DNA from: a virus
Lineage: Duplodnaviria > Heunggongvirae > Uroviricota > Caudoviricetes
DNA length: 48,061 nt
IMG/VR virus record: IMGVR_UViG_3300001199_000002
Span: 1 to 48,061 of that record
Direction: 5' to 3' (one strand)
The notes under the pieces were generated by a model. It saw only the letters and a program-made list of their open reading frames with translations. It was not told the DNA's origin and made no database searches. Positions 29,580 through 40,923 of the stretch are shown here, piece by piece. Position 1 is the first letter of the stretch; every line of letters begins with the position of its first letter. The position numbers were made by a program, and so were the translations under genes.

Positions 29580-29990
29580 TTGCCAAATATACCAGGAGTC
29601 TAGGGGTCCGACAATATAAGCGTATACGAGCGCAACGTGGCTGCGTGCGCGGCAAAGGCGGAGCCGCCTTGGTGTCTCAAAATGAGACTTACTTGGGTGG
29701 TCGCCGTCCCGCAACGAGACGAACGAGGAAGAAGCCCGCTAGCAACAATGTCAGGACCATGACAAAAGTAGTGTCATTGCCTAGCATTGGCGATGCTGGA
29801 GAAAGCACTTAGCAGCCATCTCCTTCTTCGTGCAACGGCGCACTATTCATAGCGCAATCACTTTGCACTTGATGCACAAGCTCGACGCTCCAATGATCGT
29901 CGCCATACCAATTTGAGGCCCAAAGCTCTGCCTCTTTCCTAGTAACAAACGTTCCGCTGACGATACACACGCCAGCTTCGTAAGTGATGA

Positions 29991-30743
29991 CTACGAACAT
30001 ACGTTCACCATCGTTTGGGGTTTCTTGATACAAAGCCCGCAGCGCGAGCACGAGAAGTTTGCTGGCATATCCTTGCCACGTTCGAACGGGCAGACGGTAG
30101 CGCCAGCGATACGATGCAGAAGGGGCGCAACAACATCGGGATTCTGTCCCTTTGCGATTGCCTTTTTACGCTTCCATTGGTGATTGCCTTGGCGCGCATT
30201 GTGATTCGTGCGGAACACAATATCCTCACGGCGCAACCATTCGGGCGCACTATCGTCAGACGTGAGATAGCACAAACGGTAATCATCCGCATAGGGAACT
30301 TCGGGCATGCCCGTATCCTTATCGACAGACAGATTCACATTCACGTTGCTAAGTGCATTTAGCGACATGATAGCAAACCACAATTCTTCGATACGCCACG
30401 AGCGAGTATACGCATAGAACGTTACGTCCTTGCGCGCTGTCGCGATACGCTTCCACTTCTCGATATACTCCACACTGTGGAAGTCACCGCTAACGTGGAT
30501 ACGGAACTCGCAACCGTGCGGAATGTTGCGGATCATGTAGCGCACGAACTCTGCACTATCGGCGAATTCGTGGTTACGCGCATACTTGCGCCCCACGTTC
30601 GGATAGGCGCTCGCGAGCTTGAACGCATAGCACTTGCTAGCGCACAATTCTGTGGCACCGGGACACGTAACCTTTGCGGGAAGATCGAACGAGTAGCACG
30701 ACGTTTTATCGTTGCCCTCGCTGATATAGGTAAGGTCGGCCAT
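29991..30743 (-). CDS. GP88-like Cys-rich phage protein
   Basis: GNDK...FDLPA..TCPGA...C...CYA...FRIHVSGDF...FYAYTRSW...CP...C..CG.C. Confidence 0.7.
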   Translation of the reverse strand: MADLTYISEGNDKTSCYSFDLPAKVTCPGATELCASKCYAFKLASAYPNVGRKYARNHEFADSAEFVRYMIRNIPHGCEFRIHVSGDFHSVEYIEKWKRIATARKDVTFYAYTRSWRIEELWFAIMSLNALSNVNVNLSVDKDTGMPEVPYADDYRLCYLTSDDSAPEWLRREDIVFRTNHNARQGNHQWKRKKAIAKGQNPDVVAPLLHRIAGATVCPFERGKDMPANFSCSRCGLCIKKPQTMVNVCS

Positions 30744-32133
30744 CGCTCTAGTATACCCTACTTCCTTCTAGTTGTCCAGTATTTCGGTCAGAAACCTTGC
30801 AGAAAGATTCTCAAAATAGGACTTGACAAACCTCCGGGGGTGTGATATACTAGCCTATACTTCAGGAGACCCGTATACCCGCGCTGCAAGCGCGAGACCT
30901 CGCGCTGTTCCGTTGTGCAACGCCGAGCGGGCGCGCTGTCTCAGGTTGAGAACACGCAACTCTCAATCAGAGACGCGGGCAAGTCGCAGTAGTTCTTACC
31001 GATTGCCTTCAAAAGTCTCTCGTTGAGACGAATGGCTTCATCGGGGAAAAGCGATGCATGATCGTCGATCGCGTATAGCGCATACAGTTGCCGAATGATT
31101 TCGCGCCAACTCATCGGCGGTATCCTTGGCACTGCGCGCAGTTACAGACGACGGCAATCACTACTGGTTCGTTTGTCATTGGAGTTAGTTGTTGTGTGGT
31201 CCTTCGTGGTGAAGAGCAAGCGAACAACGGTCACCCGTCCATCCGCTTTCGCAACGCTGTACCACGGCACCCCGACGTTCGGTTGTGACTTCGTGGCTTT
31301 TCGCGTTCGGATACCGATTCTGTAGGTATCTCAGTTCCCGCATGATCGGCCAAGCCGTATAGACTGGACCGATGTAGTGGTCATCGACGTAGAGATACAG
31401 ATTGCGCTTGAGTCTCATCGTTTCCTTTTCGTTCTAGTTGCGATGTAGTATCCTACCACAAGAACAACTAGAGTCAAGAGGAATGTCGTATCTTGTCCCA
31501 TAAGGGGACTAGTCTGCGGCATGGCCAGGATTCTCGAATGGGGATTCGTATTCCTGGAACTCAAGCAATGCCATGTTTACGGCATAGCGAGCATCGGAGT
31601 CGGCAATCTCCGGGCATTCATCTAGTAGCAAATACGTCTCGCCGTTTGGAGCCTTCCAGTCTCGAAGTGAGACCTTATAGGATCGATTGAGACCTTGCGG
31701 ATTCGTGACAAGGATTAGAGCGCGGGGAATCCCGAACTCAGCCATTACGATTCGTGCGCTGTAGTTCACTTGTGCCACCTAGGACAAAAGAAAGGACAAC
31801 GCAAGTCAATGCCATAAGCACGACAAGCGGAATCCACAACGGGGAAAGAATCCAGAATCGCACTAGACTTCCTTCTTACTGGCTTCCACACACGCGATGG
31901 CGTGCGCATCGAAGTCGATTGAGGTAGCGAAGAACTTGCCGCATAGGCTGCACTTGCATGATCCACACATGCTAGAAGCATACCACATATTCGCTAGTTG
32001 TCAAGCGACCCATCACAGATTCCCTATATGAGACAGTATTGGCCCGTTGCGCATGCGCGAGGCGTCGCGCTGTCTCAAAATGATACCACCCACCATCCGT
32101 GCGGGGGATGGCGGGCGTCGTCCGGCTTCCGTC

Positions 32134-32427
32134 TCAGTCTTGGACGATGTAGGTTTCCCCGCTCACCTTGAACGATACGAGCGAGGCGATGTTGACCATC
32201 CGATATTCTCGGCTTGAGACTTCGAATACCGTCAGCAGGAGTTTCGATTTGGGATCGTACGGAAGCTCACCGCCGCGCAGATACTTGCGAACTCCGCGAC
32301 GGCAAACCATTTCGCGCATCGTTCCATCCTTCTTTTGGAAGTAGACGGAAAAGATCCGTCCGCCAGTCTCGTTTTCGAGCCACTGTGCCGCACGTTGGCG
32401 GGGAATGATTTGCACGTTCAGGTTCAT
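32134..32427 (-). CDS. Phage SH3/WYL-like fold protein
   Basis: GRIFSVYFQKKDGTMREMVCRRGV...YRMVN; related to 39610-40044. Confidence 0.55.
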   Translation of the reverse strand: MNLNVQIIPRQRAAQWLENETGGRIFSVYFQKKDGTMREMVCRRGVRKYLRGGELPYDPKSKLLLTVFEVSSREYRMVNIASLVSFKVSGETYIVQD

Positions 32428-32493
32428 GTTTCGGTAGGAGTTAGGGACGCGAGTAGTATACACTACCCGCGCCCCTTTGTCAAGCCCCGTGGC

Positions 32494-32988
32494 TCAGTCG
32501 TCCTGATTCGAGACGCTGCCCGCCTCGATCTCGGCTTCCGTCCGCTCGCCCTCACCGGGCAGAATGTAGAGCCCCGTGGGGAACTCCACGGTCTCGCCCT
32601 TCGCCGCGCGTTCCAGTGCCGCGTTGAGGGTTTCCAGGTCGAACGGCACGCGCCCGTTCGTCTCGATGGCCCGCGCCTTCGCGGTTTCCAGGTCCGCCAG
32701 ACGCTTCTGCGCGTTGGCAATCTTCGTCTCGATGTCGGACACCGCCGGGCTGTTCTCCGTGGCAGCGCGACCGTTCAGCAACGTTGCCGCCGCCTTCATG
32801 GCAGTGTCACGGCGACGGATGGCACGCTTCAGCCGCGTGACCATGTAGGAATCGTCCGCCGTTTCATCGAAGTTGCCGGCAATCTGCGCCTCGATCTTCG
32901 CCAGCTTGAGGCGAAGGGCTTCCGCCATCTGGGCTCGCGTGCGCCGATTCCGCTTGCCACCACCACCATTGTTTTCGTTCGTCGTCAT
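32494..32988 (-). CDS. Coiled-coil hypothetical protein with basic N-terminus
   Basis: KRNRRTRAQMAEAL; AAGGA RBS; heptad-like helices. Confidence 0.65.
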   Translation of the reverse strand: MTTNENNGGGGKRNRRTRAQMAEALRLKLAKIEAQIAGNFDETADDSYMVTRLKRAIRRRDTAMKAAATLLNGRAATENSPAVSDIETKIANAQKRLADLETAKARAIETNGRVPFDLETLNAALERAAKGETVEFPTGLYILPGEGERTEAEIEAGSVSNQDD

Positions 32989-33306
32989 CGTTCTTTTCCT
33001 TTTCGTTTTGGTTGTTGTTTCGGGGAGTCGTTCCCCTCGTTCGCTTGAATCATACCATGCTTTTCGGCAAGGTCAAGGAAAGCGGCAAGAATCTTTTGCA
33101 GGTCTATTTTCAAGAATCTAGCGGTTTTTTACTTGACTACAGATTGCTTGTGTGCTACGCGCGGACGCGCGCAGAAAGAAAGGTGCGAGTCCCACTTTGA
33201 GATTTTACAATTTCGTGGTTGACAAGCTGCGCGATATGTGCTATACTTAGGAGGGAGGACCGTTTTGCATGCGCGAGCCGCTTCGCTGTTTCTCAAAATG
33301 AGAAAA

Positions 33307-33423
33307 TGGTGGAGGCGGTGGGAGTTGAACCCACGTCCAACTAGACAAGTCCCGTTTTGGTACAAAAGCCTTTCGGGATGCGGACTTTCACCGCCGTTCT
33401 AGTTGTCGAAACCCGTCGCCCCC
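33307..33423 (-). ncRNA. Minimal tmRNA-like RNA (tRNA-like domain only, 117 nt)
   Basis: 5' GGGGGCGACGGGTTTCGAC ... GGACGTGGGTTCAACTCCCACCGCCTCCACCA 3'; G3-U70 pair, A73, no D stem. Confidence 0.8.
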
Positions 33424-40146: not shown

Positions 40147-40353
40147 TCATTTCGAGACAAGGCGGATCTTGTGCCGTCGCGCTGCGCATTCTCCGAATGA
40201 GACGCAAGCGAATACCGTCGCGCCAACCCGTCCCGTTTTGAGATCGTAGGGGCGAACGGCGATCATTGGCGCATCGCTCATTTTGAGACAGTACGTGCAA
40301 CGCGTACCATCCGGCGGAGAGAAGATTGTGATTGTCTCGTTTTGAGTTTGCAT
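40147..40353 (-). CDS. Small Cys-containing early protein
   Basis: MQTQNETIT...CTYC...C...C; ends VSK-TGA in palindrome. Confidence 0.55.
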   Translation of the reverse strand: MQTQNETITIFSPPDGTRCTYCLKMSDAPMIAVRPYDLKTGRVGATVFACVSFGECAARRHKIRLVSK

Positions 40354-40363
40354 GGTAGTTGTC

Positions 40364-40480
40364 TCAGATTGCGAAACCGCCGAGCATCGTCCAGACCGTC
40401 CAGCACACCGCACCGGGAACCGAGCCGATCGCGACACACTTCAGAAACCACACACCGAACTCTTTTGCGTTGTTGCTCAT
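40364..40480 (-). CDS. 38-aa hydrophobic peptide (not in ORF track)
   Basis: MSNNAKEFGVWFLKCVAIGSVPGAVCWTVWTMLGGFAI; stop in TGAGAC; sigma28 promoter directly upstream. Confidence 0.55.
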   Translation of the reverse strand: MSNNAKEFGVWFLKCVAIGSVPGAVCWTVWTMLGGFAI

Positions 40481-40489
40481 GACACTTAC

Positions 40490-40517
40490 TTATCGGCTTT
40501 CGGTTGAGGAAACTTTA
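40490..40517 (-). promoter_or_regulatory. sigma28/FliA-type promoter
   Basis: TAAAGTTT-N12-GCCGATAA, consensus boxes. Confidence 0.75.
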
Positions 40518-40552
40518 GCTTGCGCTTTTGTTTTCTTGTCTCTTTCGTAGAC

Positions 40553-40630
40553 TCAGCGATTGTACTTCGCTTCAACAAAGGCAACGGCGAGGGCGAGAAC
40601 CGCGACAGCGTAGCAAGCGAGAACGACCAT
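40553..40630 (-). CDS. 25-aa single-TM peptide (not in ORF track)
   Basis: MVVLACYAVAVLALAVAFVEAKYNR; TCAAGTCA-N12-GACGATAA upstream (40638-40665). Confidence 0.45.
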   Translation of the reverse strand: MVVLACYAVAVLALAVAFVEAKYNR

Positions 40631-40923
40631 GCTACTATTATCGTCCGATTGTCTAGTTGACTTGAGCCTAAGCTAAAGAAAACCGAGAGGGGAGGGTCTC
40701 ACTATGGGACGGGGTGTTTTTCAACTTATGTCTCAGAGTGAGACGCGGGCGGGCCGGGGAGGCATGCAATGGCAGTTCACACGCAACTTGGAACACCGCG
40801 ACACACCTGGAAAAATTTGGGTCACCTCTAAAAACAACTGAAACACTAAAACAGCTCCGTTCTTCTTTCATAGAAAGGAAAATCGGGCTAAGAAGTTCCA
40901 TACTATAGTGTATAGGAGACGCT

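Follow-up and report, generated by a model that had tools for sequence, protein, structure and literature searches.

The window analysed here, that is, the whole stretch of 48,061 nucleotides, comprises the first 48 kb of the 176,061-bp IMG/VR record IMGVR_UViG_3300001199_000002, a phage genome with direct terminal repeats whose completeness estimate is that of a complete genome. An 11-kb block on its minus strand holds about 30 small ORFan genes (38-250 amino acids, aa), nearly all of them without a Pfam family and each forming a cassette of its own. To the right it is bounded by a divergent control region, beyond which a plus-strand operon starts at 40.9 kb and leads through a σ70-family factor (41874-42503) to the terminase. 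The block probably represents the early array of the phage, with host takeover as its probable role, and it is punctuated by a 15-bp palindrome, GTCTCA-N3-TGAGAC, which is the subject of this analysis (Table 1).

Exact copies of the palindrome number seven in the window, against 0.01 expected. With up to two mismatches there are 48 copies, as against 2.41 expected and 7 in the largest shuffle, and 46 of these 48 lie in the array. This agrees with a preliminary description of the window, in which the palindrome was said to recur through these 11 kb and had been noticed nowhere else. In the whole genome, all 24 sites with at most one mismatch fall at 26350-40744, a control pattern read backwards has no match, and of the 56 sites with up to two mismatches 10 are found outside this stretch, about the number due to chance. 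The motif is confined to the array genome-wide. A restriction-site reading was rejected: GTCTC/GAGAC is the core of a type IIS site, but half-sites outside the array occur at about the expected density, so that no avoidance is seen.

The copies belong to a repeated module that runs palindrome, A, GC hairpin, GC(A/T)TGC, about 17 nt, palindrome, 19 nt and -35 box. The succession of palindrome, GC hairpin, CATGC, second palindrome and promoter had already been recognised in the preliminary description, and it can now be added that the distance from the palindrome to the end of GC(A/T)TGC is exactly 21 nt (one A, the GC hairpin of 4-6 bp and the hexamer) in 65 unique copies from the window and its relatives. 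The idea that GCATGC is a decayed σ54 -24 box was discarded, as it fits one module only and is inconsistent.

Nearly every array gene has its own promoter. Classed by their sequence, these putative promoters comprise about 19 of the σ70 type, all on the minus strand, three of the σ28 type and four to six of the σ54 type. Sites resembling σ70 promoters number 28, against 7.0 ± 2.3 in shuffles, and are mostly TTGACA-17-TATACT on the minus strand. With 5-8 nt between the -10 box and the ATG, the mRNAs would be leaderless; a -10-like hexamer ending 4-9 nt before the ATG is present at 14 of 28 array genes versus 11 of 126 large open reading frames (ORFs) elsewhere, and Shine-Dalgarno-like words precede 18% of the array genes versus 44% elsewhere. 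Perfect σ54-type sites, TTGGCACG-N4-TTGC, occur four times in the genome, all of them in the array, intergenic, on the minus strand and conserved in relatives. Modules of this kind insert a palindrome, 23 nt and the σ54 promoter, followed after 2-4 nt by the promoter-proximal palindrome. Three sites in the genome read T(A/C)AAGTTT-N12-G(C/T)CGATAA and are classed as σ28-type by what we take to be the consensus of that promoter; they stand 4-7 nt before start codons and are conserved in relatives.

Some further observations concern the promoters. In most cases the -35 box is lengthened to TTGACA(A/T)CTAG, and CAACTAG is met again 7-17 nt ahead of start codons without a promoter; the distant relative L175 has 11 copies of ACATCTAGA in 20 kb. 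A 17-codon leaderless mini-ORF (36141-36194, -) lies directly behind a consensus promoter, overlapping the start of gene 36145-35882, and is kept in contig L090 although the downstream gene is replaced there.

Table 1. Array, palindromes, hairpin units and promoters in the window (positions of the window; in the strand column, a point stands for no assigned strand)
Feature	Position	Strand	Remarks
Early-gene array	29674..40744	-	About 30 small ORFan genes, each its own cassette; 46 palindrome sites (≤2 mismatches)
Exact palindrome, divergent control region	40730..40744	.	Between leftward array and rightward sigma-factor operon; sole site kept in distant relatives
Second control-region palindrome, GTCCCATAGTGAGAC	40696..40710	.	
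Degenerate palindrome, TGA closes 38-aa gene 40480-40364 (FAI*)	40361..40375	-	
Palindrome, TGA closes gene 40353-40147 (VSK*)	40144..40158	-	
Palindrome, TGA closes gene 40044-39610 (VPV*)	39607..39621	-	Gene product WYL_2-like, 144 aa
Palindrome, TGA closes gene 39437-39189 (VSA*)	39186..39200	-	Also 17 nt upstream of next gene's -35 box
Palindrome, TGA closes gene 39141-38896 (VSL*)	38893..38907	-	Exact palindrome 26 bp on (38867-38881)
Palindrome, TGA closes gene 38262-37987 (VPV*)	37984..37998	-	Second palindrome 22 bp downstream (37962-37976)
Palindrome, TGA closes gene 37854-37654 (VSK*)	37651..37665	-	Start of next gene 7 nt later
Palindrome, TGA closes gene 35713-35105 (VPK*)	35102..35116	-	
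Palindrome, TGA closes gene 32427-32134 (VQD*)	32131..32145	-	WYL_2 domain
Palindrome TTCTCAACCTGAGAC, TGA closes gene 31114-30941 (FST*)	30938..30952	-	Not in the preliminary list
21-nt unit (A + GC hairpin + GCATGC), example	35081..35101	-	Directly after palindrome
Other 21-nt units	Ends at 38357, 37941, 37223, 36779, 35847, 34455, 32051, 38846		
Promoter-proximal palindrome, 19 nt upstream of -35 box	35049..35063	.	Centre about -62
Same 19-nt layout	36746-36760, 37178-37192, 37908-37922		
Promoter-proximal palindromes, 18-nt gap	34376-34390, 35769-35783		
Promoter-proximal palindrome, 28-nt gap	38325-38339		Centre about -71
Near-consensus σ70-type promoter, TTGACA-17-TATACT	35001..35029	-	ATG 5 nt after -10 box
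Perfect σ54-type promoter, TTGGCACG-N4-TTGCT	34394..34410	-	23 nt after one palindrome, 3 nt before next
Other perfect σ54-type promoters	35786-35802, 38773-38789, 40104-40120		
Weaker σ54-type promoters	39508-39522, 39568-39582		
σ28/FliA-type promoter, TAAAGTTT-N12-GCCGATAA	40490..40517	-	
Other σ28-type promoters	40051-40078, 39445-39472		

The palindrome is held in phase with these promoters. A copy lies within 80 nt upstream of 59 of 80 unique σ70-type leaderless promoters, and the gap to the -35 box among those 59 is 19 nt in 28 cases, 17-18 nt in 12, 28 nt in nine and 15 nt in three. The 19-nt gap sequences are only 36% identical between copies, which means that the length is kept and the sequence is not. 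The centre of the dyad falls at about -62 of the σ70 promoters, or at about -71, one helical turn further. In 11 of 13 distinct layouts with a σ54-type promoter, taken from several lineages, the palindrome ends 22-24 nt before the promoter and its centre lies at about -58.

Substitutions were compiled over 274 unique sites from 20 related contigs. They are symmetric between the two halves (T4C in 30 and A12G in 46; A6G in 42 and T10C in 34), G1 and C15 are both loose, the half-site reads GTCYCR and the central base is A or T in 89% of the sites. Symmetric pairs changed on both sides in two-mismatch sites number 9, against 11.6 expected, and Watson-Crick pairing across the sites is no higher than in shuffles. 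In an alignment of 45 palindrome-plus-hairpin units, 1 of 270 cells of the palindrome helix is changed on both sides and 22 cells are unpaired, whereas the GC hairpin covaries, with G-C and C-G at 18:17 at alignment pair 17-30. Symmetric substitution without compensatory change indicates that what is constrained in the palindrome is its sequence, as expected of a protein-bound site in duplex DNA; the covariation of the hairpin indicates a constraint on its structure, as in single-stranded RNA or DNA.

The palindrome is probably an operator, a site on duplex DNA for a predicted homodimer, carried in the repeated spacer-plus-promoter module. The preliminary description had offered two options, cassettes bounded by recombination sites or an operator array for a dimeric protein, and the second is the better supported, given the conserved symmetric half-sites, the lack of compensatory covariation, the A/T-rich centre and the fixed distance to the -35 box. 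The model proposed here holds that some 30 unrelated genes would function as self-contained, mostly leaderless cassettes, each with a host-type promoter, and that a dimer would read the 15-bp palindrome on one face of the helix, at the class I positions of about -62 or -71. The bound protein could then switch the whole array together, either in an early-to-middle shut-off or in a boost exerted through the α subunit of RNA polymerase, the route used by p4 of phage φ29, and at gene ends it may form an insulator or roadblock jointly with the GC hairpin.

The site has a second relationship to the genes, as it carries their stop codons. On the coding strand the sole stop within it is TGA, at positions 10-12, in the 3' half, and ten window genes end on it. 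All nine stops that had been listed beforehand, including the degenerate FAI*, are found in place (Table 1), and two can be added, namely the FST* stop at 30941 in TTCTCAACCTGAGAC and a TAA at 37250 within the spacer of GTCTCCTAACGAGAC. Genes said to place a TAG on the edge of the site do so at 34490 and 35882, and also at 31509, where the site is a 3-mismatch variant, GTCCCCTTATGGGAC. Counting open frames of at least 40 codons in the window and 20 related contigs (two near-duplicates of L152 included), 76 ORFs that end within 5 codons of a palindrome do so in the TGA frame, and 4 and 3 in the other frames, so that the overlap, which the preliminary description had allowed might be no more than dense motif placement would produce, shows a frame bias beyond chance. 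Within 15 codons of the site the ends number 79 in the TGA frame versus 31.

Homologues of one protein stop at differing points past the conserved domain, and the V-S/P-x tails are limited to the palindrome-rich clade; the tail is thus an add-on, formed where an ORF runs into the module. A palindrome also directly adjoins the 3' end of a mini-tmRNA, which means that the site marks gene ends, translated or not. The stop is inside the hairpin-adjacent palindrome in 15 of 74 cases, and is often in a second palindrome 22-36 bp upstream instead. It is proposed that the module abuts the upstream ORF, and because TGA is the only stop on the coding strand, genes running into the site would be closed within it and left with a V-S/P-x tail. 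We infer that the module must begin at a gene border and that selection keeps ribosomes off the hairpin.

Several points weigh against an operator bound by a phage dimer. None of the phage proteins checked was found to be a binding protein for the palindrome. The 144-aa WYL_2-like array protein is an Sm/SH3-like barrel without a helix-turn-helix (HTH) and occurs in relatives with a single palindrome; the winged-HTH-like gene 38262-37987 has Pfam matches below threshold and is confined to this lineage; and the 81-aa product of the first gene of the rightward operon, present in all relatives, has a confident model with no solved-fold match. The only HTH matches elsewhere in the genome are sub-threshold HTH_3 frames at about 55.5, 115.4 and 121.0 kb, so that the search for a recombinase or an HTH protein suggested in the preliminary description has returned no recombinase in the genome and, for HTH domains, sub-threshold matches only. 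The promoters are already near consensus, and a class I activator seems unnecessary. The helical period from site to site is weak, with R 0.20 at 10.4-10.6 bp and a peak of the same height at 8.5 bp (p about 0.005, uncorrected for the periods scanned, the palindrome copies not being independent), and the fixed spacings could partly stem from module duplication. Finally, nearly all sites lie in transcribed DNA, and sequence alone leaves room for an RNA role.

It could accordingly be argued that the signal is read at the RNA level. The palindrome, with a 6-bp stem and a 3-nt loop, and the GC hairpin would then fold in transcripts as a signal for 3'-end formation, termination, processing or stability, recognised by an RNA-binding factor of the phage or the host, and the stop in the 3' arm would halt ribosomes before the structure. 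The hairpin that follows the palindrome, with its true covariation and fixed geometry, fits this explanation, as do the preference for the TGA frame, which keeps ribosomes out of the hairpin, the palindrome after the mini-tmRNA 3' end, and the nature of the most conserved array proteins, Sm/WYL-like barrels whose fold is able to bind RNA or single-stranded DNA. Canonical U-tract terminators, moreover, were not enriched in a scan (15 versus 12.2), so something else must separate the cassettes. The palindrome itself, however, shows no compensatory changes, its symmetric substitutions including both wobble-keeping and pair-breaking ones, and its sequence is invariant over deep divergence while the adjacent hairpin varies freely. 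The exact distance of 19 or 28 nt to the -35 box and the control-region site, which lies upstream of the first promoter, also point to DNA, and an RNA-level signal is regarded as unlikely.

Relatives were recovered from metagenomes. In an IMG/VR contig whose terminase is 67% identical, copies of the palindrome cluster within the 6 kb that are syntenic, and a metagenome scan with the palindrome-hairpin pattern found dense arrays on at least 20 contigs, the samples being marine, sediment and others; L152 has 23 sites (at most one mismatch) in 11 kb, and L089, L169 and L170 are further examples. An exact-motif scan of IMG/VR with GTCTCATATAGAGAC returned single chance matches only. In the distant relatives L175, L177 and L178, whose 144-aa WYL_2-like protein is 46-55% identical, a single palindrome is conserved in the divergent control region. 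This region consists of GCATGCC, a spacer, the palindrome and GTTGAAAAAC, and it adjoins a conserved rightward operon that encodes an 81-aa protein, two more small proteins and the sigma factor. L154 carries five palindrome-like sites in tandem in its control region. The single site of the distant relatives suggests that an old operator spread with promoter modules in one clade, and the exact control-region palindrome of the window is, by this comparison, probably the ancestral operator.

A site sequence unchanged over deep phage divergence is also what would be expected if the reader were a host protein. The palindrome would in that case be bound by a global regulator, such as an HTH protein of the Fis type or an enhancer-binding protein of the flagellar system, that ties the cassettes to host physiology or motility. 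The σ54 promoters require an enhancer-binding protein and the phage encodes none found (its PF00158 matches are RuvB-like or generic AAA proteins, and PF02954, the Fis-type HTH, has no match); palindromes flank these promoters at a fixed distance, σ28- and σ54-type promoters co-occur, and immediate-early promoters must fire before any phage protein exists. FleQ boxes, GTCaNTAAAtTGAC (PMC6120874), share with the palindrome the outer GTC...GAC and the A/T-rich centre, a resemblance only, and differ from it in their length and in the bases further inside. Among 185,579 species genomes, from which the host may be absent or in which its sites may be degenerate, none has a palindrome core joined over 22-26 nt to a σ54 promoter, and all 120 module-pattern matches followed as host hints in the genome collection are without palindrome arrays. 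Typical enhancer sites, furthermore, lie further from the promoter than the -58 centre seen here. A host-factor site is on balance improbable. Slightly more doubtful is a bolder version of it, in which the palindrome would be the landing site of a host master regulator, perhaps a flagellar enhancer-binding protein or some other global dimer, that wires about 30 takeover genes to motility or physiology and, acting as a roadblock at gene ends, explains the placement of the stops; if so, a virulent phage would couple its takeover genes to the state of the host via σ70, σ54 and σ28 promoters.

The gene content of the array turns over. The window and the relative with the 67% identical terminase have 5 of about 30 genes in common, in collinear order, and the DNA between these anchors is replaced (5.8 kb with 17 genes versus 1.8 kb). 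L152 and L164, which are 99.9% identical, differ by a 265-bp unit of promoter, 64-aa gene and palindrome, the right junction of which is at the palindrome. In L090 the gene corresponding to 36145-35882 is replaced together with its module, the junctions being at the start of the gene and close to the promoter-proximal palindrome. In L162 a crossover within the promoter has placed the homologue of gene 37854 behind the promoter of gene 38262, and in L089 the homologue of gene 37645 is placed after that of gene 34807, a translocation. L162 also holds a free-standing HNH endonuclease gene (184-624, +; 146 aa, PF01844, 23 bits), which replaces the window genes 38701-38408 and 38262-37987; window homology resumes within the right half of a promoter-proximal palindrome.

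The junctions thus fall in the repeated modules, sometimes in the palindrome but also in promoters and gene starts, with no single fixed point, as expected from homologous recombination between repeats. The gain, loss or reordering at the palindrome that the preliminary description had proposed to look for in relatives is therefore encountered as turnover with one translocation, inside modules and not at one position. Its remark that no recombinase is visible in the window extends to the complete 176-kb genome, where the tyrosine (PF00589), serine (PF00239) and Y1 (PF01797) families have no match. Its view of recombining cassettes retains gain, loss, replacement and translocation with junctions in modules, and loses the integron-like recombinase system, since the genome has none and the cassettes have their own promoters; such a recombinase-driven system is not supported. 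A dedicated recombination or cleavage site at which a recombinase or endonuclease moves the cassettes in an integron- or homing-like way is very improbable, for although stops embedded in the site as in attC, a folded hairpin beside a conserved core, the 265-bp indel that ends at the palindrome, the HNH gene inserted with a junction inside it and the altered gene order of L089 could be cited in its favour, tyrosine, serine and Y1 recombinases are absent from the complete genome, whose HNH matches are all sub-threshold, the cassettes are equipped with promoters of their own, further junctions are located within promoters or where genes start, a fixed -35 phase serves no role in recombination, and distant relatives have a single control-region site. 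Under the operator model, the many near-identical modules would supply the homology for recombination, through which cassettes could be gained, lost, replaced and moved without a dedicated recombinase, in the manner of the promoter-early stem-loop (PeSL) cassettes considered below.

Other features of the genome may be summarised as follows. Megablast found no close cultured relative, and among cultured phages the large terminase is best matched, at 24% identity, in Tsamsa-like Bacillus phages (siphoviruses). The genes at 1-28 kb, on the minus strand, include those for an RNA ligase, a CCA-adding enzyme, a DNA ligase and AAA proteins. The G+C content is 52-57% in the array (29500-41000) and 46-49% in the remainder of the window. 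The conserved rightward operon (40924-42503, +), which adjoins the ancestral palindrome, encodes proteins of 81, 111 and 125 aa and then the σ70-family factor; unlike the array genes, the first gene of this operon is preceded by a clear ribosome-binding site, AGGAGA. Two more σ70-family factors are encoded beyond the window (G000 96463-96657, +, and 145099-145239, -), and with three sigma-like proteins in the phage the host RNA polymerase is presumably redirected in stages.

Within the array, the WYL_2-like paralogues 39610-40044 (-) and 32134-32427 (-) are Sm-like barrels and its most conserved proteins, present in 9 lineages. The 144-aa protein has 92 homologues of 42-92% identity, and its AF2 model (pLDDT 82.5) matches WYL domains (PafBC, BrxR, CapW) only weakly. 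The mini-tmRNA (33307-33423, -; 117 nt) matches Rfam RF00023 with 72.3 bits over model positions 1-374; it consists of the tRNA-like domain only and is not called by ARAGORN. Its copy in a relative is 80% identical and is followed there by a canonical terminator, and the ORFs listed over it (33601-33425 and 33365-33129) are probably spurious. The conserved 70-aa gene 37433-37645 (-) holds three palindrome-like sequences (37612-37626, 37525-37539 and 37465-37479). The last two code for a peptide that is repeated, (F/Y)L(K/N)(M/L)GQ, and the sequences may represent sites within the gene or a chance effect of the peptide repeat.

If the palindrome is an operator, the array offers a concrete and widespread case, from at least 20 metagenomic contigs of several lineages, of how takeover genes can be organised in an uncultured large phage: as leaderless plug-in units that use host promoters from three sigma classes and share one standard connector. 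This connector of about 70 bp appears to unite operator, insulator hairpin, stop codon and recombination homology, and it would explain the V-S/P-x tail common to unrelated genes. Its family history would be that of one ancestral control-region operator, spread with promoter modules until it governed the whole array, and the identity of the binder would expose the early switch of a phage group without a cultured member.

Several known systems share parts of this organisation. As with σ54 enhancers (upstream activating sequences), a -24 GG / -12 GC promoter lies downstream of the array site, but the phage has no cognate AAA+ enhancer-binding protein with a Fis-type HTH, a host protein being possible. 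The attC sites of integrons are 57-141 bp long, defined by structure and provided with a GTTRRRY core. Here too unrelated genes end within a repeated imperfect palindrome and gene content turns over; the array site, however, is 15 bp long, conserved in sequence and free of compensatory changes, the genome has no IntI-type integrase, and the cassettes have promoters of their own instead of one in common. Class I activators such as CAP work from -61.5 and -71.5. From its upstream site in a divergent control region, the φ29 protein p4 switches on one promoter and also represses strong early ones (PMC3100819). Like these systems, the array has a dyad whose centre lies some 62 or 71 bp ahead of the start on one face of the helix, and it differs in that its promoters are near consensus and many of its sites are at gene ends, far from promoters.

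The stoperators of Cluster A mycobacteriophages, the L5/Bxb1-type repressor sites, are multi-site operators that stop elongation (PMC9283540), and they resemble the array in having dozens of copies of one site at gene borders, able to block elongation and to silence many genes. They are, however, asymmetric, 13-14 bp long, bound by a monomer, oriented with transcription and spread genome-wide in temperate phages with a known repressor, whereas the array site is a symmetric dyad, confined to 11 kb and phased to promoters, in a phage in which no repressor or integrase was found.

The closest resemblance is to the PeSL regulatory cassettes of T4-type phages (PMC2839356, Arbiol et al. 2010; PMC4122927, Comeau et al. 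2014). In both, small ORFan early genes, each with a strong host-type promoter, are split by a repeated composite of stem-loop and promoter; the array occupies a hyperplastic block of an otherwise conserved genome; and cassettes are inserted, deleted and replaced through crossovers in the repeats without a dedicated recombinase. The present phage belongs to a lineage unrelated to the T4-type myoviruses, as its terminase indicates, and its array is an analogue of the PeSL cassettes and not a member. Its mRNAs are leaderless, whereas PeSL mRNAs have a Shine-Dalgarno site, its hairpin has no U-tract, three promoter classes are in use, and it adds a sequence-conserved 15-bp dyad at a fixed promoter phase that doubles as a stop codon. 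By analogy, the array thus resembles T4-type PeSL cassettes with an added operator, and not an integron. Shuffling of the PeSL type is already known; what would be new here is a PeSL-like layout with a built-in dyad operator, which would extend the PeSL idea past the T4-type phages and add an operator of the protein-binding type to it.

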